DNA of 64,000 nucleotides, from assembly GCA_964450735.1 (NCBI GenBank), contig CAYVDC010000001.1:5577-69576 (forward strand), given 5' to 3'. The translations under genes were made by a program, and so were the position numbers. The DNA comes from an uncultured Candidatus Saccharibacteria bacterium (GTDB taxonomy: Bacteria; Patescibacteriota; Minisyncoccia; Phycocordibacterales; UBA9973). Every line of letters begins with the position of its first letter. Position 1 is the stretch's first letter. Below are positions 2,104-25,729 of this stretch, one piece after another. The notes beneath the pieces are model-generated. The model was not told the DNA's origin. It searched no databases and saw only the letters and a list, made by a program, of their open reading frames with translations.

Positions 2104-2160
2104 GTGGTAGCCGACGGAATCGAACCGCCAATGTTTCTAATGTAACTGATTTACAGTCAG
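2104..2160 (-). tRNA. tRNA 3'-half fragment (pseudo-tRNA). It has an anticodon arm with a GUA (Tyr-type) loop, a T-arm GGCGG-TTCGATT-CCGTC, and an acceptor 3' strand GGCTACC-A. No matching 5' acceptor strand or D-arm was found.
   Basis: The minus strand reads ...GCTGA CTGTAAA TCAGT ...GGCGGTTCGATTCCGTCGGCTACCA. This includes a canonical T-loop and a 7-nt anticodon loop with U33. The complementary 5' acceptor strand GGTAGCC is absent within 200 nt on either side. Confidence 0.4.
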
Positions 2161-2182
2161 CCTCCTTCACCGTTCAAAAAAT

Positions 2183-2596: not shown

Positions 2597-3444
2597 TCCA
2601 CTAACATATTTTTATCCCAATCATTTTTGAATTTGTTGTATTTGATATTTGTGATTGTTTCTAATTCATTTTTTAATATAATTTTAAGGTTATATCCAAT
2701 TTCAATAAACAATCCGCATTTTTTCTTGGATTTATCAGAAAACATTCCTTTTATTTCAACCCATTGATTATCTTTTATTAAATAGAAATCGGGGGTATAT
2801 CTTAATCCGTTTAATAATTTTATAGTCTTATATTCATATTCCCATTCAATTAAATTATTTGTTAAATATTGAGCATACATAACTTCAAAACCACTTCTCA
2901 TTTTAATAAAAACACCATTTTTGTAAACTCCCCATTTTCTAGTTGAACACATTTTAGTGCTGTTATTTAAACCTATTCGACTACCAGTGATACTAACCAT
3001 TTCTTTTTGATAACACCCACAACTTTTAACTTTACCAGATACTAAATCAGCGTAATAATTTCTTTTAATATTACCACAGTCACATTTTGTTATATAGTAA
3101 TAACCCCCATTCTTATCATTCTGTTCAATATTTACAATGGTCAATCTATTAAATTTCTCACCAATCTTTGAATTTGCTGTTTTTGTATGTTTTTTATTTA
3201 AATTTCCAATACCAACTGAACATCCACACCCAATAATTTTACCGCTAGTTAAAACACTACCTCTAATTATTTTCTCATTACCACAATCACATTTACATAA
3301 ATATTCTTTTCCGTGATTCCCTGTGTGATTTAATTTAACTACTGTCAATTTTCCAAATTTAATACCAGTCAAGTCTTTTCCTTTACTCCCGCCAATTTTA
3401 TTACTCATATTGTTATATATTTTATCTATATATAAATATAACAA
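2593..3444 (-). CDS. putative homing-type endonuclease with two N-terminal zinc-ribbon DNA-binding repeats and a C-terminal PD-(D/E)xK-like nuclease domain
   Basis: Two repeats of the form FGKLTVV...YLCKCDCGNEKII...SGKIIGCGC and FNRLTIV...ITKCDCGNIKR...SGKVKSCGC. C-terminal ...RYTPDFYL...QWVEIKG... resembles a PD-(D/E)xK motif. It sits exactly between the two TnpB fragments. Confidence 0.45.
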   Translation of the reverse strand: MLYLYIDKIYNNMSNKIGGSKGKDLTGIKFGKLTVVKLNHTGNHGKEYLCKCDCGNEKIIRGSVLTSGKIIGCGCSVGIGNLNKKHTKTANSKIGEKFNRLTIVNIEQNDKNGGYYYITKCDCGNIKRNYYADLVSGKVKSCGCYQKEMVSITGSRIGLNNSTKMCSTRKWGVYKNGVFIKMRSGFEVMYAQYLTNNLIEWEYEYKTIKLLNGLRYTPDFYLIKDNQWVEIKGMFSDKSKKKCGLFIEIGYNLKIILKNELETITNIKYNKFKNDWDKNMLVE

Positions 3445-3809: not shown

Positions 3810-4057
3810 TATTTCTTAACTTATTTTTCTTTTTTTTCTACGTTCAACACTACGCTTATCATAGAGATAACCATAAATACTATCAATTATTAACACCAAA
3901 TCAGTTACCAAATCTTCTTGTTCACTTACATTATTTTTCTCAATATATATCATCTCAACCCCATATATATTAAACAAATTATATTGAAACTTTGTTAATC
4001 TATTTTTATCCTAATCTTACATCTTTCATATTTGTTTATTTATATTTTGAGCAATAA

Positions 4058-4131
4058 GTGGGACTCAAACTCATAGCCCCCGACTTGGAAGGACGGTGCG
4101 CTAACCAATTGCGCCATTATTGCTTATGTTC
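4058..4131 (-). tRNA. tRNA-Gly (anticodon UCC)-like, 74 nt, with a non-canonical T-arm
   Basis: Minus strand reads GCAATAA TG GCGC AATTGGTTA GCGC A CCGTC CTTCCAA GTCGG ... TTATTGC T. The 7-bp acceptor stem is perfect and the D-arm is textbook. The CUUCCAA anticodon loop is the same as T4 tRNA-Gly. The anticodon stem has one U-U mismatch. The 17 nt where the T-arm should be (ATGAG TTTGAGT CCCAC) do not pair canonically. Confidence 0.5.
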
Positions 4132-7380: not shown

Positions 7381-8556
7381 TTATATTTTCACAAACTTTT
7401 TATAAGCATCATCGTAATTTTTTCTTCGCTTAGGTCTGTCTCCCCAAAGGTCAGAAAAACTTTCATCATCTTGATAAACTAAACATTCTTTTGATATATA
7501 AAACATTCTATCCATTGGAAAATTTACATAGAAATAATCTATTGTTGTAAAATCTTTCGGATTGTAGCTTAATAATTTATCAAAAAATACATTGTTTACC
7601 AAATAAGCATGTGCGCCATAAACTCCTCCTGTACATTCGTAAATGTTTTCTGTCACTTTTATACAATCGTTGTTTGGCTCTCCTCCTAAATACAATATGT
7701 CCCAATTTTGATTAGGAAGTTCCGATAATAGATTTTTAAACTTCTTTTCAAATCCTTCCATGAAAATACAATCATCTTCAAATATCAGAATATTGCTTAA
7801 ATTTTGCTTCTGAGCCTCTGAAATTATATTGTAATGTGAATATGCTCCTGCCACTTTAAAGTGCTGTCTTGGGTCTTTATTTTTCGTTATACCAAGCGTT
7901 TTAATGTCTTCTTCTGATAATACAGTGGCACTTATTCTTTCTATTGGAAATTGAAAATTGGATGTTTGTTTTTCAAAAGAAATTCTTCTATCGGTTCTTG
8001 TATCAACATTAATGTAAACAGCTTTTTCAATGTTAAATTTAATGTTTTTATTATGAACCCACACAGAATGTCCTTCTTTATAAAAATCATCTTCAAATCT
8101 TTCGTTTACAGCCCTCACTACTCCTTCCCAACAGGGGTCGTAATCATGTCCAGCCATCATCCCCCCATTTTTAAGTTTGGGATACCACAGTTCTATGTCT
8201 TTTTTTACATATTCGTAGGTGTGGTTGGCATCAATATAAATGAAATCAAAATAGTTATTTTCAAATAATGATGCTCCACTATGAGAATCTATTTTGAAAT
8301 AAGTAAATAAATGAGAAATTTGAGAAGTGTTTCGTATGAATTGAACAAAATCTTCTTCATTCTCCCATAAATCTATGGAATATATGTTTAATTTTTTATT
8401 TTGCTTTAAACTCTCAATAACCAAAAAGCTAATAGACTTCCCTCTATAAGTTCCTATTTCAATAACATTAGCCCCATCAGGAAGATTGGAAACAGTTTGT
8501 TTATAAAATTCTTCATAATCAAACCATCCTTCAAGTTTTTGGTAAAAATGATTCAT
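7381..8556 (-). CDS. bifunctional class I SAM-methyltransferase-like N-domain plus glycosyltransferase family 25 (LPS/LOS-type) C-domain
   Basis: N-terminal VIEIGTYRGKSISFL is Gly-rich SAM motif I-like. C-terminal KAVYINVDTRTDRRISFEKQ...GAYSHYNIISEAQ...ILIFEDDCIF... matches GT25 (YVINL.RR.DRR...GC..SH..I...ILEDD). Confidence 0.5.
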   Translation of the reverse strand: MNHFYQKLEGWFDYEEFYKQTVSNLPDGANVIEIGTYRGKSISFLVIESLKQNKKLNIYSIDLWENEEDFVQFIRNTSQISHLFTYFKIDSHSGASLFENNYFDFIYIDANHTYEYVKKDIELWYPKLKNGGMMAGHDYDPCWEGVVRAVNERFEDDFYKEGHSVWVHNKNIKFNIEKAVYINVDTRTDRRISFEKQTSNFQFPIERISATVLSEEDIKTLGITKNKDPRQHFKVAGAYSHYNIISEAQKQNLSNILIFEDDCIFMEGFEKKFKNLLSELPNQNWDILYLGGEPNNDCIKVTENIYECTGGVYGAHAYLVNNVFFDKLLSYNPKDFTTIDYFYVNFPMDRMFYISKECLVYQDDESFSDLWGDRPKRRKNYDDAYKKFVKI

Positions 8557-12230: not shown

Positions 12231-12320
12231 ATTCCCCAAGTCTCAAATTTTCCATGCGCATTTCAGAGCCTGTTTACTCATTGAAGCGCATGATAGTTTC
12301 CACTTGGGCTTTCGATTGGG
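12231..12320 (-). repeat. 90-bp imperfect palindrome forming a three-segment hairpin. Paired segments are AATTCCCCAA/TTGGGGAATT, CCCAAGT/ACTTGGG and CATGCGC/GCGCATG. On the minus strand it is followed by TTCTTTTT, so it may act as a terminator or structured RNA.
   Basis: Inverted-repeat arms read directly from the sequence. It lies downstream of the methyltransferase gene that ends at 12467. Confidence 0.45.
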
Positions 12321-13605: not shown

Positions 13606-14042
13606 AGTTTATCCAATGAAAGTCCAATAGCAGAACAGGCTTCTTCAAAGAAATGATAGGGAAATAAAACAGATTTTTCAAAATTAGCCCTTCCATCTTC
13701 CTTTGGAGCTATTCTCCATTTACAATCATCTTTATTGCTTCCATCTAAGAACATAATAATATGTTTATTATCAAAAAAGAATGGAGACCAAAAGTTTCCT
13801 TCTTCATCTAAAATAGAAACATCTTTAAATAGTTCGGGAACTGCTTCTGAATCCATGTATTTTTCTGACAATAGTTTTCCATCAATTATTTTATTCATTG
13901 ATTTAACACATGTCAATCCACATGATTTACATATAGAACTATTTAATTCGTTAATAGTGGTGACTTCTTCCCCATTTCCACATGGACATTTTTCAACGGA
14001 AAGTGTATATTCGTTTTCTAATTCAAATTCTTTATCTTTCAT
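13602..14042 (-). CDS. hypothetical Cys-rich protein (146 aa)
   Basis: CPCG...CKSCGLTC cysteine cluster. Translationally coupled to the flanking glycosyltransferase genes. Confidence 0.35.
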   Translation of the reverse strand: MKDKEFELENEYTLSVEKCPCGNGEEVTTINELNSSICKSCGLTCVKSMNKIIDGKLLSEKYMDSEAVPELFKDVSILDEEGNFWSPFFFDNKHIIMFLDGSNKDDCKWRIAPKEDGRANFEKSVLFPYHFFEEACSAIGLSLDKL

Positions 14043-15328
14043 GGCATATTATAATCAAAATTGATAAAATCGGGAAGGACAATTTCTCTTTCGATTGGAA
14101 TAAATTCATCTATAATTTTTTCTAATTCATTTTTCATTTTTGAAAGAGAAAATTTATTAGAATGTATTTGTTGAAGTTTAGCTCCTTTCAAATGTCCTTT
14201 ATAGTCATCGAAAACTTCTTTCATCACTCTCGCCGCATCTTGATAATCAATAGTGAACCATGAAGATTCAGGAATTAACATATCTTTTACAACAGCACTT
14301 CCGTCAATCTTGTCAATTACTCCTCCGATTAAATTAACATATCTCTTATCCAAATAATCAAGATGTCCACTCCAATTTGAAACTACTATTGGCTTTCCTG
14401 CGGATGCCGTAAATTCTAAAATAGGTTTTCCAAACCCTTCTCCCTTAGTAAATGAAACAAAACTCTTCACTTTTCTATGATTGTAGAGTTCATTCATTTC
14501 TTCGTCTGATAATTCTCCATGAATCAAATAGATGTTAGGGAGTATTGATGCTGATACAGAGTTTCTGATAGAATTTATTTTATTTAAAATATCATCTCTA
14601 TCTAAAATTGACGTTGTTGCACCGCTTGTTTTCAATATTAATGCAGGACGATTAGTTGTTTTGTTTTTAAAAGTTTCCAAAAACACTTTAACTAACATTC
14701 CAACGTCTTTTCTATCATGTCCAATGTTTCCTTGAAGCCATGTTCCCACAAATAAAAAACAAAAATCTTCACTAATTTCTCTCATTGTCTCAGAGAGGTC
14801 TTGTGATTTATATTCTTTTATTGAATTTAATGGTTTGAAAATTTCTTCATTAAACCCTTCAAATAACACTTTTATCGGTTTAACCACTTCAATTGGTGTC
14901 ACAGACCCATCAGCTTCATTTCTTAATTCATATTTGGTGTCTAAAAATATCTTTTTAGTAAATTCAGAAGGAACTATAACCAAATCGGCTTTATTACATC
15001 CTTCAATCCAAGCAGATGGAGCTACTGTTGTTTCAATACCGGAAGTGAATAAAATGTTATATTCTCCCACAGGATTAAACTCATTTGGGATACCAACATG
15101 AATATAAACATCAGGTTTTTTAGAAAGAACATTTTCTCTTACATACTTTTTTACAACATCATCATCGGGGAGATAACCAAATTTAGTGTTCCCCCATTTT
15201 AAACTAATTAAATGTATATCCCAATCTTCATGTTTTAAATCTATGATGGATTTACAAATGTCATATGATTTCTTTCCATATCCTGAAAGTGTATCAAAAC
15301 ATGAAGTGATTACAGCATATTTTTTCAC
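14039..15328 (-). CDS. GT-B fold glycosyltransferase (GT4 / Glycos_transf_1-like)
   Basis: C-terminal TKGEGFGKPILEFTASAGKPIVVSNWSGHLDYL matches the E.FG...EA.A.G.PVI...GG motif of retaining GT4 enzymes. Confidence 0.55.
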   Translation of the reverse strand: MKKYAVITSCFDTLSGYGKKSYDICKSIIDLKHEDWDIHLISLKWGNTKFGYLPDDDVVKKYVRENVLSKKPDVYIHVGIPNEFNPVGEYNILFTSGIETTVAPSAWIEGCNKADLVIVPSEFTKKIFLDTKYELRNEADGSVTPIEVVKPIKVLFEGFNEEIFKPLNSIKEYKSQDLSETMREISEDFCFLFVGTWLQGNIGHDRKDVGMLVKVFLETFKNKTTNRPALILKTSGATTSILDRDDILNKINSIRNSVSASILPNIYLIHGELSDEEMNELYNHRKVKSFVSFTKGEGFGKPILEFTASAGKPIVVSNWSGHLDYLDKRYVNLIGGVIDKIDGSAVVKDMLIPESSWFTIDYQDAARVMKEVFDDYKGHLKGAKLQQIHSNKFSLSKMKNELEKIIDEFIPIEREIVLPDFINFDYNMP

Positions 15329-16758
15329 AATGAAATAGGGTGTTTTTGGTAATGTTTGTTTTGTAATTTCTTCACTTTTATAACATCGAATCTACTTCTT
15401 CTCTTAACAGATTGAATGGTGGCTTCTATTCCGTCAATAATACCATTAGCCATGTCCGTAGATTTCATTTTAGCCTCTTGTGAAATAGCCCAAGCTCTCC
15501 CCGCCAATCCACATTCTCTTCTTTCCTCTGATGGGAGTTGATATGTATTATATAGCTCATTAGCCACTTCTTGTGGGTCAACTCTATCATCAAAGATATA
15601 GGGAGTGGGTGGACTTCCTAATAGAGAAATGTTAGAAGGGAATATTGGGATAGCCCATTTTCCACATTTTTTATATTTTCCTCTATGATTGGTTTGAAAT
15701 GTTTCATTAAAATCAATCCAATTTCCTTTTTCATCTTCAAATCTCATTTGGTCTTGAATACCTCCTGTTACATTTCCCAAAATCATTCTACCTGCCATCA
15801 TAGATTCTGTCATCGACAGCCCCCATCCCTCATTAGAAGATATTAACATTGTCACATCAGCACAATTATATAGGAAATTCATCATGTCAATTCCATATTT
15901 TCCATCTGTAAAGAATACGTTGTATTTTTTTTCATCTCCAAACAACATATCTTTTACGGCAAACAAATCTGTTCCATTTACATCTATGGGGTCTGTGTGT
16001 AAAACAAGTCCCACTTTTTCAATTTCCTTATCAGAGAGTTTGTCACAAAATAATTTGAATGAAAGGAGAACGTCAGCAGGAGATTTTCGTCTAATATTAC
16101 GGGAATTCCATAAAGCAACAAAATCTAATTTCTTTCCACCAAATAAATTGTTTTTAAATTCTAAATATTCTTTAGTTTCAATCACAAGTGGATAAAACGC
16201 TTTATGATTGATTCCATGTGGAACAAATGAAGTGTATTTCTCACTTGCTTTATCTCCAAGAACTAATTTATTAATGTTATAGGTTTGTTTTGAAATAGCA
16301 ATAAGTCCGTCACATGATTCATAATAAGGCTTATTGTACATAGGAAGTGGCAGGTCATCCCAAATGTTATAATAAACAATGGGAATTTGAGTTCTAATAT
16401 CTCTTTCTACATTAAAAAGCCATCCATAATAACGTGGGTCTGTTATTATCATTAAAGCATCAGGTTTTTCTGTTTTTATGAGAAATTTAACTAAATCTTC
16501 ATCTCCATACCCATCAACACATATAGTATGAACCCAACTATCTTTTAAATTAGCCACTTCATTCACACTTGTTGACATATCAAATCTAACACCTTTATCG
16601 GGATGATTTTGCAGTCCACCAATACATATCCAATTATAAACATGAGCAGAGTTCACTATAATTTCTCTTGAAATAGTAGCCACTCCACTATGAGTTCTAA
16701 TATCATCACTAATGAGAAGAATTTTTCTTCTATTATCCCTTTCAATATATTTGTGCAT
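15325..16758 (-). CDS. GT-B fold glycosyltransferase (GT4-like)
   Basis: SSNEGWGLSMTESMMAGRMILGNVTGGIQDQM matches the EGFGL...EAMA.G.P.I....GG motif. The N-terminal half is Rossmann-like. Confidence 0.55.
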   Translation of the reverse strand: MHKYIERDNRRKILLISDDIRTHSGVATISREIIVNSAHVYNWICIGGLQNHPDKGVRFDMSTSVNEVANLKDSWVHTICVDGYGDEDLVKFLIKTEKPDALMIITDPRYYGWLFNVERDIRTQIPIVYYNIWDDLPLPMYNKPYYESCDGLIAISKQTYNINKLVLGDKASEKYTSFVPHGINHKAFYPLVIETKEYLEFKNNLFGGKKLDFVALWNSRNIRRKSPADVLLSFKLFCDKLSDKEIEKVGLVLHTDPIDVNGTDLFAVKDMLFGDEKKYNVFFTDGKYGIDMMNFLYNCADVTMLISSNEGWGLSMTESMMAGRMILGNVTGGIQDQMRFEDEKGNWIDFNETFQTNHRGKYKKCGKWAIPIFPSNISLLGSPPTPYIFDDRVDPQEVANELYNTYQLPSEERRECGLAGRAWAISQEAKMKSTDMANGIIDGIEATIQSVKRRSRFDVIKVKKLQNKHYQKHPISL

Positions 16759-18388: not shown

Positions 18389-18859
18389 TTAAGAAATTTC
18401 TGTTGTTTCGTCGTCTTTAACAACATTTGTTTTCTTAATAGGAGCTTGTTTTCCTTTATTAAACTTATTTCTCTTCTTTGAAGGAGTAAAGAACATTGAC
18501 ATATCCGAAGTAACACTTCCCATTCTACTGTCTGGTGGGTTATATCCCGGACGCACCACTCTTTTCTTACGTTTAACAATACGAATATTTTTCATCATAT
18601 CCGTTCTATATAATCTCCATTCAGGAACTCTTCTTCTTTTACTCCATCCACCTACATGCCATCCCGCCACCACTTCATTTCCCGTTTCAATATGATGACC
18701 TAATGTGAATGGTTCTATGAATCTTTTATGGTATTTGTCATCGGGAGTTCCATCAATATTTTTATAAAAGAATTCAATAGCATCGCCATTTTCAATGGCT
18801 TGTTTTATTTTATCTCCATTAATGGATTCTGTAAGAAATTTGACTAAGGAAAGTTCCAA
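18389..18859 (-). CDS. hypothetical protein (156 aa) with a basic C-terminal half
   Basis: ORF on the dominant strand. KRRRVPEWR...KRKKRVV basic stretch. Confidence 0.35.
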   Translation of the reverse strand: MELSLVKFLTESINGDKIKQAIENGDAIEFFYKNIDGTPDDKYHKRFIEPFTLGHHIETGNEVVAGWHVGGWSKRRRVPEWRLYRTDMMKNIRIVKRKKRVVRPGYNPPDSRMGSVTSDMSMFFTPSKKRNKFNKGKQAPIKKTNVVKDDETTEIS

Positions 18860-19681: not shown

Positions 19682-20767
19682 TCAATTACTTAATGGAATT
19701 TTAATGAATGGATGGTGTTGATAATTAATTAGTTCAAAATCTGATATGTCATATTCAGAAATATCATCTACCTTCCTATTTTTCACTTTCAATATCGGAA
19801 GTTGATATAAAGGTTTGGTAAATTGAGTTTCAACATATGGAATTTGATTCTCATATACATGAACATCTCCCCCATCAAATATTAATTCATCAGGAATCAT
19901 GTTCACTTCTTTAGCAATGATTTCTAATAAAAGAGCGTACACCATCATATTAGTTGGAAGTCCAAGAGGAAGGTCTGTACTTCTCATATTAAACTTTAAA
20001 GAAAGAGCTTTAGTTGGAATATTAGCCCAATTCAATTCTTGCTCAATTTGTTCGTTTGAAACTCCCTCGTAATTTTGCCCTACATTGAACGATATTCCTC
20101 CCGATGATACAATCCTATGGAAATAATTAAATCGTTCGTTAAAAGTCAAATTTCGTGCGTTAAATTGGAAGTTTGTATGACATGGATTTAACACCATTTC
20201 ATTTAACCGAGAAACATCCCAATTATCCACTAAAATTCGCCTACTATTTGGATTGTTTTTTAATTCCTTAATAGCGTTAGCTATTTGGTCGATTTTGCCT
20301 TCCTCTGATGAAAAATTTCTCCATTGATAGGGATACAGTGGGCCGACATCTCCAAACTTTTTACAAAAAACATCGTCTGTTAAAACACGTTGTTCAAATT
20401 CTAAAAAAGTAAAACCCCTAACTTTATTTTCTTGAACATCTTCTATCAAATAATCATAATCAGGCTCTTCAAGTGTGTTTGTAAAATTCAAATAACTTTG
20501 ATAACAATCCCCAGTCCATATGTGACAATTGTTTTCTAAAAGAAATTTAATAGAGGTGTTTCCTTTTAAGAACCAAAGAAGTTCAACAACAGCATTATTA
20601 AAATTTATTTTTCTACTTGTTAGAATTGGGAATCCGTCTGACATTTTATGTCTTATTGTTCTTCCAAAAACACTTAATGTTTTCCCATTTCTCCCTTCTT
20701 TTTCATATCCATTATCTAAAACATCTTGTAAGATGCTTAAATATTGTTCTTCATAACTTTTATTCAT
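19682..20767 (-). CDS. thyA: thymidylate synthase family enzyme (ThyA/Td type; dUMP-specific Asn retained) with two insertions
   Basis: Near-identical blocks to E. coli ThyA: DGFPILTSRKINFNNAVVELLWFLKG, GKIDQI...LKNNPNSRRIL, LNPCHTNFQFN (catalytic Cys), and MRSTDLPLGLPTNMMVYALL (Arg/Asp and the dUMP-specifying Asn). A roughly 50-aa insertion follows IWTGD, as in the L. casei and T4 type. A second insertion of about 45 aa follows the PCH motif. Confidence 0.8.
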   Translation of the reverse strand: MNKSYEEQYLSILQDVLDNGYEKEGRNGKTLSVFGRTIRHKMSDGFPILTSRKINFNNAVVELLWFLKGNTSIKFLLENNCHIWTGDCYQSYLNFTNTLEEPDYDYLIEDVQENKVRGFTFLEFEQRVLTDDVFCKKFGDVGPLYPYQWRNFSSEEGKIDQIANAIKELKNNPNSRRILVDNWDVSRLNEMVLNPCHTNFQFNARNLTFNERFNYFHRIVSSGGISFNVGQNYEGVSNEQIEQELNWANIPTKALSLKFNMRSTDLPLGLPTNMMVYALLLEIIAKEVNMIPDELIFDGGDVHVYENQIPYVETQFTKPLYQLPILKVKNRKVDDISEYDISDFELINYQHHPFIKIPLSN

Positions 20768-21810: not shown

Positions 21811-22758
21811 TTAATATAAATATCCATATTTCACTGAATTAAAACAGGATAGGGTAGTTCCTCCCCCATATGAAATTGAAGATTGTAAGTCTTCTTTCAT
21901 TTCTTCATATTTTTCTAAATAAGTCATGGGTGTATATTCGATTTCAATTCTTTTTCCTTCAATATTTCTATTATGTCCTTTGGTATATTCAGACGCAGAG
22001 CCATAATATATTTTTCTCATTCCTGTAACGGTGTTAATAGTTTCTGATGGGCTATCACTTAAAGAGGCAAACATTCCTCCCACCATCACCATTGTTGCTC
22101 CTGCCACTAATGCTTTAGGAATGTCTCCATTTTCTCTAATTCCTCCATCTGCTATAATGGGGAGAGTGCTTTGTTTTGAACATTCCAATACAGCATCAAA
22201 TTGTGGAAATCCAAATCCTGTTTTGTTATATGTAATGCAACTTTTTCCCATTGCTATTCCCACTTTAATAGCATTCACTCCACACTCAGTTAAATACTCA
22301 ACTCCTTCCTTAGTTGCTACATTTCCTGCTATAATAAATGCGTTATTAAATACATTTTTAATGTTATTTATTGTATTTTTAATTAACAATGAATGTCCAT
22401 GTGCAATGTCAATAGTGATACAATCTACATCATTTCCATTTTCTTTTATTCTCTTTAACATTTCAATATCTTCATCTTTTACTCCTATTGAAAGAGAAAT
22501 ATATTTGTTTTCATTTCTGAGAGAATAATCTTTCACCCAATTAATTATTTCCTCCTGAGAATAGAATCTATGAAGAATGTAAAAATAATTATTTTCAATA
22601 AGTTGTTCAGCTATATTAAAATCTATTACACATTTCATATTTGAAGGAATAATAGGGAGACCCCAACAGCGATTGGCAAAATAAACACTTGTTTCCGCTT
22701 CGCTTCTGGTGGTTAATGTTGAACATTTAGGAATTAAATAGATTCTGTTATAACTCAT
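21811..22758 (-). CDS. IMPDH/GMP-reductase family enzyme lacking a CBS domain (GuaC-like, 315 aa)
   Basis: CITIDIAHGHS, IIAGNVATKEGVEYL...NAIKVGIAMGKSCITYNKTGFGFPQFDAV (catalytic Cys loop) and IIADGGIR...GATMVMVGGMFA match the IMPDH/GMPR TIM barrel. The length and absent CBS domain favour a GMP-reductase-type enzyme. Confidence 0.65.
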   Translation of the reverse strand: MSYNRIYLIPKCSTLTTRSEAETSVYFANRCWGLPIIPSNMKCVIDFNIAEQLIENNYFYILHRFYSQEEIINWVKDYSLRNENKYISLSIGVKDEDIEMLKRIKENGNDVDCITIDIAHGHSLLIKNTINNIKNVFNNAFIIAGNVATKEGVEYLTECGVNAIKVGIAMGKSCITYNKTGFGFPQFDAVLECSKQSTLPIIADGGIRENGDIPKALVAGATMVMVGGMFASLSDSPSETINTVTGMRKIYYGSASEYTKGHNRNIEGKRIEIEYTPMTYLEKYEEMKEDLQSSISYGGGTTLSCFNSVKYGYLY

Positions 22759-23368
22759 TAGTTTTTTTGTTAGTTTTTCTTGTTTTTTTGAGTTCAGATA
22801 GTTTTTTAGCTTGTGCTTTTCTCCAATTTCTTACAGACATTAATGACTTATCCACTTTTTTATAAACATAATCAGCTATTCTTCTTCCTTTTTCATTTAA
22901 AACATATCTCTCTTTGTAAGCTGAATAGAATATACATTCAAGTAAATCATTGTCTGTTAAGAATTTAAAGAATCCTTCGTCTAAATAATTTTTAGTAGCT
23001 TGTCTTGAATTCTGAGTGATACAATAGTAATAATTTTTGTCTAATTTTAATTTTGTTATTGGAACTTCTTTCCAAATAGAGTTTAAAGATTGAAATTGTA
23101 GTTTAGATTTTGTATATGTTTTCTTTAAACTGTCTTTGTTTAAAATTCTATTGTTACATAACAATTTTTCTGAATAAATTAGTTCCTCTTCTTTTAAAGT
23201 TTTTAAAATATTTACTAATTTCTCATAACTTTCAGTCTGAGCAGCTACACTTTTGACAAAAAAACTAATTTTATTAGCTCTATGTTTAAAAACAATATCA
23301 GTCCATTCTGTTGGACTTATTTCTGTTGAAATATATGTTGGAACAAAATTATTAAATTCTTTTCTCAC
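22748..23368 (-). CDS. hypothetical protein (206 aa), first gene of the leftward block, GTG start
   Basis: ORF abuts the GC island at 23366. The start codon is GTG (complement of 23366-23368). The C-terminus is basic. Confidence 0.35.
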   Translation of the reverse strand: MRKEFNNFVPTYISTEISPTEWTDIVFKHRANKISFFVKSVAAQTESYEKLVNILKTLKEEELIYSEKLLCNNRILNKDSLKKTYTKSKLQFQSLNSIWKEVPITKLKLDKNYYYCITQNSRQATKNYLDEGFFKFLTDNDLLECIFYSAYKERYVLNEKGRRIADYVYKKVDKSLMSVRNWRKAQAKKLSELKKTRKTNKKTNEL

Positions 23369-23849
23369 GTGTGTGCGCGCATACGTGCGCGATATTAATT
23401 TAATATATTATTAAAAATAATATATTAGTTTTTATTTAAAAGTTAAATTATTTTATTTTAATTTATTTTTAATAAATTATATTTTCTTATTTTTATTTTA
23501 AAATGTTTTAAATGTTAAAAATATAATTTTAAATGTTTTATTTTAAATTTAAAATAATTATTTAGAAAATTTATATTAAAAATTTTCTATTATATATATT
23601 CTAATTAATTCTAATAATGATAAAACTACTAACGCGCCTGCGCGTGATGCGCCTACGTGCGCACGTATATGCGCGAGGATAAAATATTTAAAATAGAAAA
23701 CAAGAATTTTAACATTTTTTAACATATCTATTCAGATGAAACATTTTATACACAAATTTAACTAAATTTATTTGTTTTTCAAAGAAAATGTTATGAAATT
23801 TGAAAAATTATTTCACCCGCGTATGCGTACATGTACATGCGCGTGTATG
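23366..23849. promoter_or_regulatory. Candidate origin / divergent regulatory region. Three GC-rich palindromic islands with alternating purine-pyrimidine sequence (23366-23391, 23632-23675, 23817-23849) flank a roughly 240-bp near-pure A/T tract that contains repeated AAATGTTTTA units.
   Basis: Island 1 is CACGTGTGTGCGCGCATACGTGCGCG. Island 2 is ...TGCGCGTGATGCGCCTACGTGCGCACGTATATGCGCG. Island 3 is CCGCGTATGCGTACATGTACATGCGCGTGTATG. Perfect palindromes include CACGTG, TGCGCGCA, ACGTGCGCACGT and CATGTACATG. AAATGTTTTA occurs at 23501 and 23531. The region lies at the strand switch. Confidence 0.35.
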
Positions 23850-23917
23850 GAAAGGAAAATGGAGCAAAAGTTGAAACCTTAATAACAACCAAACACCAGA
23901 ATCGTTTTTAAGCCACC

Positions 23918-23999
23918 AAATTTGCCCTACAATCAATTATCTTTCTTTGAATGATAAAATATATGTCTTAGAATAGTTCGTCGATTGTAGGGCAAATTT
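23918..23999. repeat. Perfect 17-bp inverted repeat AAATTTGCCCTACAATC ... GATTGTAGGGCAAATTT with a 48-bp spacer, about 100 bp upstream of the first rightward gene
   Basis: Arms at 23918-23934 and 23983-23999 are exact reverse complements. Confidence 0.6.
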
Positions 24000-24095
24000 G
24001 AGGGGGTTTCTTAATTTTAAAATATTTTTTCAATATATTTGGAAAGTTTAATAATTTGTTCTACCTTTGCATAGAATTTAAAACCAACAGAAAAT

Positions 24096-24689
24096 ATGCT
24101 AAATGCTGACCAAATAAAAGACAATTTTTCCAATTATTGTCAATTGTTGGAAAAAATAACAGAACCGAGAAAATCAATTGTTCTCAAATACATTTTAGAA
24201 AATGCTGACAACATAGCCACTTCTCCTGCAAATACAGCCACTGAATATGGATATTGTTATTATGGGGGATATGTAGAGAGAACATTGAAAATTGTAGAAG
24301 TGGCTAAACATTTACATGCTATTTGGTCTAAATTTACACCCATTTCCTATTCAGGAAATGAATTGTTATTTTCAGCCATCTTATGTGAATTGGGAAAGGT
24401 GTTACATGGAAACACTCCTGTTTTTTCTGAAAATACAACTGAATGGGAAATCAAAAAAGGAATGATTTTCAAAAGAAATCAAGAAGTTCCTTTTATGAAG
24501 AATTCTGATAGAACATTGTTTAATTTGTCAAATTTAGGAATAACACTTTCTGAAAATGAATTTTATGCAATTAAACTATCTCAGGGGATGTATGAAGAAG
24601 AGAATAAATCCTATCTTCAATATTCCAATTTAAAAAATAAACAATTACATCACTTAATCCATCAGGCGAGTTTAATTTCAAACCAATGA
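24096..24689 (+). CDS. hypothetical protein (197 aa), first gene of the rightward structural block
   Basis: ORF on the dominant strand. Its size and position ahead of the gp5-like gene recall T4 gp53, but no motif supports this. Confidence 0.4.
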   Translation: MLNADQIKDNFSNYCQLLEKITEPRKSIVLKYILENADNIATSPANTATEYGYCYYGGYVERTLKIVEVAKHLHAIWSKFTPISYSGNELLFSAILCELGKVLHGNTPVFSENTTEWEIKKGMIFKRNQEVPFMKNSDRTLFNLSNLGITLSENEFYAIKLSQGMYEEENKSYLQYSNLKNKQLHHLIHQASLISNQ

Positions 24690-25012: not shown

Positions 25013-25729
25013 TTGTTTTATATGCTTGGACAAAATTATAAAAGAAAACGTGTTGTCTATTTTACCAAAGAAACACAAGATGCAATTATTAGATATAATT
25101 CATCAGAAAGTCATGTGACTAAAAATGCTATTTATGAAAAATTTATTCATAATGTTTTTGATAAGTTAGTAGAAAACATTGTTCATAAATTCAAATTCTA
25201 TTATACAGATGTGGATTCGATGCGTCAGTTGAAACATGAGGTGATAATCCATTTGTATAACAATCTTCACTTGTACAATCCCTTAATGGGAAAAGCCTAT
25301 TCCTACTTTGGAACTGCGGCTAAACGATTTCTCATTCAATATAATGAGAAAAATCATAAACGACTTATTCAAAAGAGCGAACCTGCGGAAGTAGATGCAC
25401 TTGACCTTTCATATAGAAAATATGAATTGAATGAATATGAACAACATGAGAACTCAACAGACTATTTCACCGATTTATTCATTGAATATTTAGAAAGCAA
25501 TGATAGATACTTGTTTAAGGGAAAACCTGAAAGGCAAGTGGTCGATTCTTTCATTTCCATCTTAAAAGAAAGAAAGAATGTTGAGATATTCGATAGAAGG
25601 TCATTAAATGTGTATATTAAGTCTATTACAGATGTTTCTCAGCAGAAAATTAACGAAGTGTTTCTTTCCCTTAAAAAGTTATATTTATTATTGAGTAAGA
25701 AATACGATGAAACAGGAACTATTCACTAA
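25013..25729 (+). CDS. hypothetical protein; possible gp55-like late sigma factor (weak)
   Basis: N-terminal KETQDAIIRYNSSE... and ...YSYFGTAAKRFLIQ resemble sigma-70 region 2-like segments of T4 gp55. Similarity judged by eye only. Confidence 0.3.
   Translation: MFYMLGQNYKRKRVVYFTKETQDAIIRYNSSESHVTKNAIYEKFIHNVFDKLVENIVHKFKFYYTDVDSMRQLKHEVIIHLYNNLHLYNPLMGKAYSYFGTAAKRFLIQYNEKNHKRLIQKSEPAEVDALDLSYRKYELNEYEQHENSTDYFTDLFIEYLESNDRYLFKGKPERQVVDSFISILKERKNVEIFDRRSLNVYIKSITDVSQQKINEVFLSLKKLYLLLSKKYDETGTIH

Follow-up and report, generated by a model that had tools for sequence, protein, structure and literature searches.

Why should a stretch of AT-rich phage intergenic DNA carry three GC-rich, strictly alternating tracts, in the one large gene-free gap of the sequence analysed and at the point where both transcription arms diverge? 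In large environmental Bacteroidota phages, hardly any origin or early control region has been mapped, and the module described here is a compact candidate (~450 bp) common to related phages. The window, that is, the whole 64,000-nucleotide stretch that we analysed, comes from a Bacteroidota-type myovirus of which Flavobacterium phage Immutovirus is a distant relative; its host is probably a strain of the Flavobacteriia. Its baseplate wedge protein shares ~43% identity with those of its nearest cultured relatives, Immutovirus and Microcystis phage Mel-JY01, so that the term T4-like, used in a first-pass annotation of this DNA, applies only loosely. The same annotation proposed that the gap is either a replication origin or a divergent promoter hub. 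Both are still the two best explanations. The gap contains conserved divergent promoters, and its layout is kept in four lineages.

Anatomy of the gene-free gap

The intergenic gap spans positions 23369-24095 (727 bp, compared to 730 bp in the first-pass annotation). The gap and the genes on either side of it hold the following features:

22748-23368, minus strand: first leftward gene (206 aa), with its start codon inside island 1
23366-23391, unstranded: island 1 (the 'big' island, on the GMP-reductase side), CACGTGTGTGCGCGCATACGTGCGCG, 26 nt of strict alternation, 69% GC
23392-23632, unstranded: AT tract, candidate DNA-unwinding element, 241 bp, 5.4% GC, with short tandem and direct repeats
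23498-23538, plus strand: AAATGTTT-type repeat units at 23501, 23510 and 23531 (two exact copies and one variant)
23612-23641, unstranded: most conserved intergenic block, TAATAATGATAAAACTAC-TAACGCGCCTGC, nearly invariant between window-type and L040-type phages
23633-23677, unstranded: island 2 (the 'small' island), 45-nt GC-rich segment including the strict 22-nt run TACGTGCGCACGTATATGCGCG at 23654-23675
23753-23783, minus strand (23783->23753): P_left, Bacteroidota-type promoter predicted at the motif level, TTTG-N19-TAAATTTG
23814-23850, unstranded: island 3, with the 32-nt alternating run CGCGTATGCGTACATGTACATGCGCGTGTATG at 23818-23849, between the two divergent promoters
23917-23934 and 23983-24000, unstranded: perfect 18-bp inverted repeat, its arms separated by 48 nt
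24038-24069, plus strand: P_right, Bacteroidota-type promoter, TTTG-N20-TACCTTTG, 26 nt upstream of the ATG at 24096
24096-24689, plus strand: first rightward gene (197 aa), 30% identical to an Immutovirus protein annotated as a phosphohydrolase

The three strictly alternating pyrimidine-purine, CpG-rich runs (26, 22 and 32 nt; 53-69% GC) lie where the first-pass annotation had placed them, at the lengths given there, and far exceed chance expectation. In 300 first-order Markov simulations, the longest alternating run averaged 12.2 nt and never exceeded 17 nt, and among the other runs of 40% GC or more in the 64 kb, the longest measures 12 nt. CpG is depleted across the window (observed/expected ratio of 0.51), which contains only five CpG-dense clusters, three of them being the islands. 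Likewise, six of the seven copies of TGCGCG found on both strands of the window map to the island region. Island 1 contains the hairpin CGCGCA-TACG-TGCGCG (23376-23391) and extends over the GTG (23368-23366) at which the leftward 206-aa gene starts. The strict run of island 2 had been described correctly, but it is preceded by CGCGCCTGCGCGTGATGCGCC and belongs to a GC-rich segment larger than had been recognised. Islands 1 and 2 flank the AT tract on either side; as had been anticipated, this tract is almost pure A/T, and it is the lowest-GC 241-bp segment of the 64 kb, the next lowest reaching 18.7% GC. Identical island-region sequences were recovered in the independent assemblies L042, L043 and L044, thereby excluding an assembly artefact, and L066 and L067 carry near-identical ones.

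The AAATGTTT-type units do exist, but 'iteron-like', as they had been called, is a weak label for the window genome because they are few; the relatives L040, L055 and L065 carry 7-8 copies (spacing of 8-26 bp, mostly 8-15), and the near-identical L066 has one extra unit. Helically phased A-tracts in the spacers were not significant, and the repeats are not helically phased. The perfect inverted repeat has the expected 48-nt spacer, with arms of 18 rather than 17 bp, but it is not a conserved element as a whole: relatives keep only the outer ~11 bp (CCACCAAATTT / AAATTTGRKGG) and the inner block TTGATAAAATATAT. We rejected it as a conserved hairpin, the outer 11 bp being invariant and showing no covariation on either strand. 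We also discarded a 49-aa open reading frame called by gene callers at 23576-23725 in L042 and L066, as no equivalent was called in L040-type genomes and no matching frame was found by eye in the L040 leader. Searches against Rfam at permissive and gathering thresholds returned no gathering-level match in the region (best sub-threshold scores of 13-24 bits against thresholds of 37-100), and the sole ARAGORN prediction in the 64-kb window was a tRNA-Gly at 4049-4123. A known RNA or a tRNA/intron remnant, which the first-pass annotation had set against its own reading, was therefore rejected.

Layout and alternation in related phages

We compared the layout in four metagenomic lineages (the L040 clade, L014, L070 and L069). 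The GMP reductase of L014, a neighbour of the module, is only ~52% identical to that of the window, and L069 and L070 share the L014 gene arrangement. All four lineages have in common a big alternating island, an AT-rich spacer with short repeats and a small island, and in the 64 kb, as at each relative locus, this module occurs once and in a syntenic position. The spacers of the relatives (190-600 bp, 9-19% GC) cannot be aligned between clades; those of L070 and L014 contain 16-19% GC, the extreme AT content being specific to the window lineage. Alternating runs in the relatives measure 15-39 nt (26-39 nt in the lineages with saturated spacers), and the remaining sequence retrieved for these phages showed no other. 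Island 1 and the big islands of L070, L014 and L069 are homologous, with the shared TTCTCA(C/T)G as anchor, and the L040 clade has a shorter version of island 1. Island 3 is confined to the window-type lineage; when aligned by hand with the core of the L070 big island, it agrees at ~24 of 26 positions and needs one 2-nt indel. Megablast of the phage collection gave no match, IMG/VR protein scans with both flanking genes found nothing, and the other scans for relatives returned L014 as the only true one. A metagenome DNA-pattern scan with CTCGCCCACGTATAG yielded chance matches only among the first 120 matches listed. The complete genome of Immutovirus, whose genes nearly all point in one direction and do not form divergent arms, has no comparable island or AT tract.

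Counted from the shared TTCTCA, the islands stay in phase and their letters differ almost only by transitions. The variable tract of the small island is 19 nt long in the L040 clade; 12 of its columns vary, 11 of them by transitions only. Over the island columns of this clade, 11 are transition-only versus 2 with transversions, compared to 46 versus 46 in the rest of the intergenic region, an excess that is modest when set against the other G/C columns of the same region (11:2 versus 20:11). Because the spacers cannot be aligned between clades while the islands change almost only by transitions, purine-pyrimidine alternation, and not the sequence, appears to be conserved, which strengthens the Z-DNA-prone character attributed to the islands in the first-pass annotation. 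Such an apparent conservation of a structural property while the sequence drifts makes the locus an unusually clean natural case. That related phages keep the layout despite the changed sequence argues for a real functional DNA module.

A single inversion separates the window-type from the L014-type gene order, and its breakpoint coincides at the module with the divergence point of both transcription arms, indicating that islands of high GC in the AT-rich intergenic DNA of a phage can mark genome organisation, a point of use for annotation. Presence at the strand switch in both gene orders is not independent evidence, since a single inversion could carry the module along. The breakpoint also brings in an improbable alternative, in which the tracts have no dedicated function and are recombinogenic non-B DNA, (CG)n-type remnants at an inversion/duplication junction, or a decayed insert of MITE type whose terminal inverted repeats are imperfect. 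Island 3 would then be a partial duplicate of the big island, which it resembles, and independent CpG-to-TpG/CpA decay of a (CG)n ancestor could account for the variation of island 2. However, each lineage has one copy of the module, at a syntenic position, an alternation of 26-39 nt persists even where the spacers are saturated, and a neutral remnant would be expected to gain transversions like its flanks, where they affect 46 of the 92 variable columns. The ends of the module, TCTCAYG... and ...CRTGAGA, are weakly inverted, but the flipped polarity of the small island in L069 weakens their reading as terminal inverted repeats. Direct repeats lie outside both islands in L014 (77 nt) and L070 (29 nt) and are too long to be target duplications. 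Lacking dispersed copies, the module was rejected as a MITE or other insertion element.

Promoters, flanking genes and the proposed function of the module

We defined Bacteroidota sigma-A promoters by a -33 TTTG and a -7 TAnnTTTG box with a spacing of 17-23 nt. The gap contains two divergent, conserved host-type promoters with the consensus TTTG-N19/20-TAnnTTTG, P_left and P_right, which are among the seven full consensus matches in the 64 kb, six of the seven agreeing with local gene orientation. P_left is fully conserved in L040, and its -7 box is conserved in L055; P_right is kept in both. Transcription from P_left is predicted to run leftward into the 206-aa gene and, on its way, to cross island 2, the AT tract, which begins ~114 nt downstream of the predicted start, and island 1. 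On the other side, the gene at 24096 had been taken for the first late gene; its promoter is instead of the host-type consensus, and it is not preceded by the strand-specific TATTTATAWA motif found upstream of structural genes.

The best explanation for these features is that the module acts through its physical properties and not through a fixed sequence. Specifically, we propose, with a probability of roughly 35%, that the region is a conserved, non-coding, structure-prone module that operates at the DNA level as a transcription-activated replication origin. In this scenario, the host-type early promoter P_left would fire into the module, and early transcription from the divergent promoters would deliver negative supercoiling, an RNA-DNA hybrid or both to the 5%-GC tract. 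Unwinding of this tract would then let it act as the origin from which the phage replicates, much like the T7 primary origin or T4 oriF/oriG. The alternating CpG-rich tracts (two in the shared layout, three here) could adopt left-handed (Z) or hairpin/cruciform forms; being stiff and structure-prone, they would delimit the unwinding zone and absorb or gate superhelical stress.

The T7 primary origin comprises the promoters 1.1A and 1.1B followed by an AT-rich region, and T4 oriF and oriG combine a promoter with a downstream unwinding element that forms an R-loop. At the level of motifs, the gap is similar in that a promoter reads into an exceptionally AT-rich tract. It is also located at the 5' end of an expressed gene, without DnaA boxes or long iterons. 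It differs in that its promoter follows the host-type Bacteroidota consensus instead of being phage-specific, and in that its AT tract of ~240 bp is flanked by alternating CG-rich tracts, which are not known from T7 or T4 origins. No cluster of DnaA boxes was found: the region contains one match with one mismatch, and the whole window 34 compared to 26.6 expected. The cumulative GC skew does reach its minimum at 22-24 kb, a check suggested in the first-pass annotation, but this minimum coincides with the strand switch and is inseparable from gene orientation, and hence is not independent evidence.

Iteron-type origins such as lambda ori, P1 oriR and those of many plasmids carry repeats of 17-22 nt. 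The module resembles them by its short direct repeats next to an AT-rich region with GC-richer flanks, and by a repeat family that changes between lineages along with the adjacent gene. Unlike theirs, its units are 8-17 nt long, present in only three copies, variable in number between genomes and irregularly spaced, and are not accompanied by DnaA boxes or a recognised initiator. We rejected an iteron-type theta origin array, for which we looked for at least 3-4 repeats of ~17-22 bp, as the AAATGTTT-type units measure 8-11 nt and number three here. The four 17-nt units in the spacer of L069 were also rejected as iterons because they equal a strand-specific late-promoter-like motif, TATTTATA, pointing toward the big island.

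No recognisable initiator, helicase or primase gene was found next to the module. The first gene beside the big island belongs to a 206/210-aa family or to a 244-248-aa family depending on the clade, with no detectable homology between the two families and empty PDB sequence searches. For the 206-aa protein of the window, searches of Pfam (best E = 0.033, well short of the cut-off), PHROG and PDB sequences returned nothing significant, and the single-sequence AlphaFold model of this protein was unusable (pLDDT 38.8). The 247-aa protein of L014 has a weak, sub-threshold match to a MerR-type helix-turn-helix. A first gene and spacer repeats that both differ between clades are what an exchangeable initiator-plus-sites cassette would be expected to show.

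Nearly as likely as the origin is that the module is a control element through which early transcription responds to supercoiling. The divergent early promoters would generate negative supercoiling, which would flip the tracts to Z-DNA or extrude them and melt the AT tract, thereby tuning or insulating both early units; alternatively, the tracts would be bound by a structure-specific phage or host protein. Conserved divergent consensus promoters share the gap, with island 3 exactly between them, and the late-promoter-like repeats of L069 are aimed at the big island. Immutovirus, with nearly all its genes in one direction, has no such module, so that the presence of the module follows divergent transcription no less closely than replication. 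Retention of alternation while the sequence varies fits structure-specific over sequence-specific recognition; as the TGCGCG core is not conserved in relatives, the sequence-specific palindrome-binding regulator proposed in the first-pass annotation finds no support. However, in L040-type phages both islands lie downstream of P_left and not between the promoters, and island 3 is missing. Moreover, the big island is placed at 0 to ~280 nt from the gene start, unlike an operator: it abuts or overlaps the start codon in window-type and L040-type phages and lies 90-280 nt away in L014, L070 and L069.

Z-DNA-forming alternating tracts flip under transcription-driven supercoiling. All three islands consist of at least ~12 bp of alternation rich in CG and CA/TG, the sequence pattern of Z-DNA; in sequence, these tracts and those of the relatives resemble known Z-DNA tracts by their 22-39 bp of strict alternation with CG, CA/TG and few TA steps, and by their position near divergent promoters and a competing, easily melted tract. 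Competition between the B-Z transition and strand separation is a subject treated theoretically in PMC3024258 and PMC3343103. A rough nearest-neighbour estimate for the B-Z transition by itself places that of the window islands at a -sigma of ~0.043-0.051, which we count in favour of the origin reading; it is also more supercoiling than is normally unconstrained in vivo, which argues against the control element. Whether the alternation itself, through its left-handed or other non-B capacity, is the selected character of paired elements gating the unwinding of the AT tract is more doubtful than either function, although it may be so. In a non-systematic literature search, we found no description of such elements in phages and no natural Z-DNA regulatory element. 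To our knowledge, no natural Z-DNA regulatory element is established in bacteria or phages, nor any functional natural Z-DNA element in a phage. If selection did act on alternation, we know of no earlier natural, evolutionarily conserved Z-DNA-type functional element in a bacteriophage, be it for origin firing or for early-promoter control. The apparent conservation of alternation makes the old question of a selected function for Z-DNA-prone tracts in prokaryotic systems directly testable.

Leader RNA, genome ends and recurring motifs

The abutment of island 1 on the start codon also suggested an RNA-level role, in which a ~380-nt 5' leader transcribed from P_left would hide the start codon by pairing of island 2 with island 1 or by an attenuator hairpin, thereby controlling translation or termination of the early leftward operon. 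Minimum-free-energy folds of the window and L040 leaders do pair the two islands, and a terminator-like hairpin followed by a T-run occurs on the minus strand at 23645-23632. The window fold is more stable than shuffled sequences (z = -4.6), but the L040 fold is no better than shuffles (z = -0.05), complementarity between the islands falls to ~7 bp in L055 in a hand comparison of the alignment, and the alignment fold of the island-2 leader has no supporting covariation (covariation term of +1). The big island is far from the gene start in L014, L070 and L069, an RNA stem has no need of strict alternation, and island 3 cannot belong to the P_left RNA because it lies upstream of P_left. We consider this role unlikely, and rejected the long-range pairing or attenuator as a single-sequence prediction.

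Less probable still is a function in packaging or as a genome terminus. Phage P1 pac has hexamer clusters on both sides of a bent centre, and in the window clusters of the GC-containing hexamer TGCGCG/R similarly flank a bendable AT-rich centre; alternatively, these clusters could bound a short terminal repeat, in which case the 'divergent' arms would really read inward from the physical ends. Several metagenomic contigs end in or beside the region (L053, L061, L063 and the 63-kb contig of L052, for example), as would be expected simply from tandem repeats and strain-variable sequence breaking contigs, but in several long contigs (L042, L066 and L067) the region lies away from the ends. Unlike in P1 pac, the hexamer is not conserved between related phages and no terminase gene is adjacent in the window; the first gene of L069-type phages has a very weak small-terminase match (E = 0.056). 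The protelomerase target telRL of N15-type linear plasmid prophages, with its central TACGCGCGTA, is comparable in placing a CG-rich, alternating core between divergent genes of a phage genome. In contrast to telRL, the gap has three separate tracts and lacks a long perfect palindrome of tens of bp, the longest perfect dyads being ACGTGCGCACGT (12 nt) and CATGTACATG (10 nt), and no protelomerase was seen among the open reading frames scanned; we therefore rejected a protelomerase target.

The first-pass annotation had further noted recurrence of the island core near 12.2 and 18.3 kb, suggesting a dedicated DNA-binding protein or a restriction/modification site. CATGCGCA is indeed present at 12253/12286 and 18345, but this is at chance level (three TGCGCA outside the region compared to 3.7 expected), and the arms of the 12231-12320 palindrome (AATTCCCCAAGTC / GATTGGGGAATT) are unrelated to the islands. 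GCGC also occurs at about its expected frequency outside the region (13 versus 15.7), which argues against a restriction/modification site. Other sites are strongly avoided in the window: GATC is absent compared to 164 copies expected, and CTAG occurs 3 times compared to 124 expected.

Anatomy of the strand-switch gap

The window has a GC content of about 30% and is depleted in CpG (observed/expected 0.51). Its largest true intergenic region is the 727-bp gap at the strand switch, where leftward genes extend up to 23368 and rightward genes start at 24096. The left flank codes for nucleotide metabolism (a GMP-reductase-like protein, a thymidylate-synthase homologue and the ribonucleotide reductase small subunit), the right flank for baseplate and other structural proteins. 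Three strictly alternating pyrimidine-purine runs, or islands, had been reported in this gap by the first-pass annotation, and we recovered all three with the same coordinates and lengths.

Features of the strand-switch gap
23366-23391, island 1, strictly alternating pyrimidine-purine run, 26 nt
23633-23677, island 2, full GC-rich segment, 45 nt
23654-23675, island 2, strictly alternating run, 22 nt
23818-23849, island 3, strictly alternating run, 32 nt
23783 to 23753, minus strand, predicted promoter P_left, full consensus match
24038-24069, plus strand, predicted promoter P_right, full consensus match, 26 nt before the ATG at 24096

Elsewhere in the 64 kb, the longest alternating run of 40% GC or more reaches 12 nt, and in 300 first-order Markov simulations the longest alternating run averaged 12.2 nt and never exceeded 17 nt. 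Six of the seven TGCGCG copies in the window fall inside the island region. Between islands 1 and 2 lies a 241-bp AT tract with 5.4% GC, the minimum of the window (the runner-up has 18.7%), which contains three AAATGTT(T/A) units. The inverted repeat described near island 3 is present with its 48-nt spacer, its arms being 18 bp rather than 17 bp long.

Scanning for the Bacteroidota housekeeping-promoter consensus (TTTG, 17-23 nt, TAnnTTTG) returned seven full matches in 64 kb, six of which agree with local gene orientation. The two matches in the gap, P_left and P_right, are both kept in related phages and enclose island 3 together with the inverted repeat. The predicted P_left transcript would cross island 2, then the AT tract and island 1, before entering the first leftward gene (206 aa), whose GTG start codon lies inside island 1 and whose N-terminus is conserved at the protein level. 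A 49-aa ORF across island 2 (23576-23725, minus strand) is called as a gene in the assemblies of two near-identical relatives (L042 and L066); none is called in the more diverged L040, in whose leader we saw no matching frame by eye, and the ORF is probably non-coding.

A candidate late promoter is the motif TATTTATA(A/T/C)A, which is the T4 late -10 sequence TATAAATA in reverse complement. All nine plus-strand matches in the window (31746, 32054, 37341, 38395, 48259, 48946, 50524, 52286 and 58659) belong to the right, structural arm, several inspected copies standing 8-30 nt upstream of structural-gene starts; one minus-strand copy occurs at 3438. Since this strand-specific motif is missing from the gap, the gene at 24096, previously labelled the first late gene, looks early instead. 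The spacer of L069, a distant relative, holds four to five copies of the motif. Downstream, a 238-aa protein (25013-25729, plus strand) without a Pfam hit is 48% identical to a protein of another distant relative, L014; genes at the corresponding position in L049 and L069, just upstream of the hub gene, give weak or faint Sigma70_r2 hits, and the 238-aa protein is a candidate for a phage sigma factor acting at the late motif.

Conservation of alternation among related phages

Relatives gathered by exact-protein look-ups, here designated by L-numbers, form three groups: near-identical copies of the region from independent assemblies (L042, L043, L044, L066 and L067), a clade in which the 24096 gene shows about 74% amino-acid identity (L040, L050, L051, L055, L057, L058 and L065), and a more distant group (L014, L070 and L069). 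L014 shares with the window 52% identity in GMP reductase, 39% in the 24096-gene homologue, 48% in the 25013 gene, 39% in the hub protein and 36% in a WYL-domain gene. Every relative recovered carries the same three-part layout, or module, in its strand-switch gap: a big alternating island, an AT-rich spacer and a smaller island. The big island, always on the GMP-reductase side, measures 15 nt in the L040 clade, 29 nt in L069 and 39 nt in L070 and L014. The spacers range from 190 to 600 bp, contain lineage-specific short repeats and are unalignable between clades. No comparable alternating run was found in the other sequence examined from these relatives.

The big islands can be aligned across clades; they share a TTCTCA(C/T)G start, keep alternation in phase over 26-39 nt and differ almost only by transitions. 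Aligned by hand with the core of the L070 big island, island 3 agrees at about 24 of 26 positions, one 2-nt indel being needed. In the L040 clade, island 2 has a 19-nt tract of constant length between almost invariant flanks; 12 of the 19 columns vary, 11 of them by transitions only. Inside the islands, the window and L066 differ three times, always by CpG to TpG/CpA. For both islands of the L040 clade, transition-only and transversion columns stand at 11:2, against 46:46 in the remaining intergenic sequence; the excess is modest, since the ratio is 20:11 at the other G/C columns of that sequence. More telling for selection on this property is that alternation persists across lineages in which neighbouring non-coding DNA is saturated.

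The first-pass annotation had also proposed a palindrome-binding regulator or a restriction/modification site recognizing the shared GC core. Such a sequence-specific function is unlikely because relatives do not keep the TGCGCG core and, outside the region, GCGC occurs at about its expected frequency (13 versus 15.7); the supposed recurrences of the core at 12.2 and 18.3 kb are chance-level copies. The 12231-12320 element lies in a 118-bp intergenic gap of 36% GC; it is a long-range inverted repeat of its own, AATTCCCCAAGTC ... GATTGGGGAATT, unrelated to the islands and possibly a structured RNA or terminator.

That the region acts as an RNA leader might be supposed from single-sequence folds, in which island 2 pairs with island 1. 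Against this, the L040 leader folds no better than shuffled sequences, hand comparison suggests that about 7 bp of the pairing are left in L055, folding of alignments for the island-2 leader and the inverted-repeat block gave no supporting covariation, and island 3 lies outside any P_left transcript; we give this reading a low probability. As single strands the islands form moderate hairpins only (stems of 6-15 bp, z of -1 to -2.5), with unconserved palindrome centres. Searches of the region detected no Rfam family and no tRNA remnant, against the tRNA- or intron-relic origin raised earlier, and no DnaA boxes; A-tracts in the spacers showed no helical phasing. A recombination relic and a packaging site are likewise of low probability.

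A possible replication origin or early-transcription control element

Three characters are conserved: strict alternation built from mixed CG, CA/TG and TA steps, the placing of two alternating tracts on either side of an AT-rich spacer with repeats, and a position at the divergence of two transcription arms beside predicted early promoters. Because of this, the module points to a DNA-level element that would act through structure. By a rough nearest-neighbour estimate, the window islands would undergo the B-to-Z transition at -sigma of about 0.043-0.051; transcription-driven supercoiling would be needed to reach it, in competition with melting of the AT tract.

In the T7 primary origin and in T4 oriF and oriG, the 5′ end of a gene has a promoter directed into an unwinding element. 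Here too, a predicted promoter reads into an AT-rich candidate unwinding element at a gene 5′ end. Moreover, the two clade groups have first genes of unrelated families next to the big island, in step with differing spacer repeats, as an exchangeable cassette of initiator plus sites would look. On these grounds we tentatively rank a transcription-activated origin first, with a probability of roughly one in three. A supercoil-sensitive element controlling early transcription is a close second, also tentative: the module is absent from the cultured Flavobacterium phage Immutovirus, whose complete 160-kb genome has nearly all genes on one strand and contains no comparable island or AT tract, and the L069 spacer repeats are copies of the late-promoter-like motif. 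Furthermore, GC skew, suggested at first as a check for an origin, is confounded as evidence with gene orientation, as is strand-switch position; the difference between the two gene orders is one inversion, with which the module travelled.

Neither origins nor divergent control regions are new as kinds of element. In the literature on phages, we found no description of paired alternating purine-pyrimidine tracts around an unwinding tract in which alternation, not sequence, is maintained. Such a conserved pair around a candidate unwinding tract is what appears new here, its function being proposed.

The window-type gene order (18.4-23.4 kb) and that of L014, L069 and L070 differ by one inversion of a block containing the module and the GMP-reductase genes, one breakpoint being at the small island and the WYL-domain gene (window 18389-18859). 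Direct repeats flank both islands in L014 (8138-8214 and 9028-9104; 77 nt, 87% identical) and L070 (5155-5183 and 6071-6099; 29 nt, 93% identical), with the core TATAAAGTCTTTAAATTAAT.ATAAAA. They may be duplicated promoters, since the copy nearest the WYL-domain gene precedes that gene by 34 nt in L014 and by about 60 nt in L070.

The phage and its genome

Among cultured phages, the closest relatives are Immutovirus and Microcystis phage Mel-JY01, whose baseplate wedge proteins show about 43% identity. No nucleotide-level match to the window was found in the phage collection; the phage is thus a myovirus of an uncultured lineage, to which the earlier term T4-like applies only loosely. The relatives L041 (GCA_013558375.1) and L055 (GCA_050655915.1) come from contigs of NCBI genome assemblies, and in one of the two the contig number is very high; this suggests phage or bacterial sequence inside a host-associated or eukaryote assembly.

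A tRNA-like sequence at 2113-2178 (minus strand), about 1.9 kb from tRNA-Gly (4049-4123), has a good T-arm and covers model positions 10-63 at a sub-threshold 21.9 bits (gathering score 29); uncalled by ARAGORN, it is possibly a degenerate or unusual tRNA.

Excluding 23360-23860, the window contains no GATC (164 expected), 3 CTAG (124 expected), 2 GGCC (21 expected) and 6 CCGG (22 expected). Such very strong avoidance of specific 4-bp palindromes presumably reflects restriction avoidance; GCGC and ACGT are not avoided in the window.

The thymidylate-synthase homologue has 361 aa, against 266 positions in the Pfam profile that it spans, so that an insertion of roughly 95 aa is implied. Together with two glycosyltransferases and a methyltransferase/glucosyltransferase-like fusion, it may produce hypermodified DNA bases, whereas Immutovirus has a 7-deazaguanine (DpdA/QueCDEF) pathway. 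The window genes of this set, the thymidylate-synthase homologue included, are located at 19682-20767, 14039-16758 and 7381-8556, all on the minus strand. Hypermodified bases, if made, would alter both B-Z energetics and CpG mutation.
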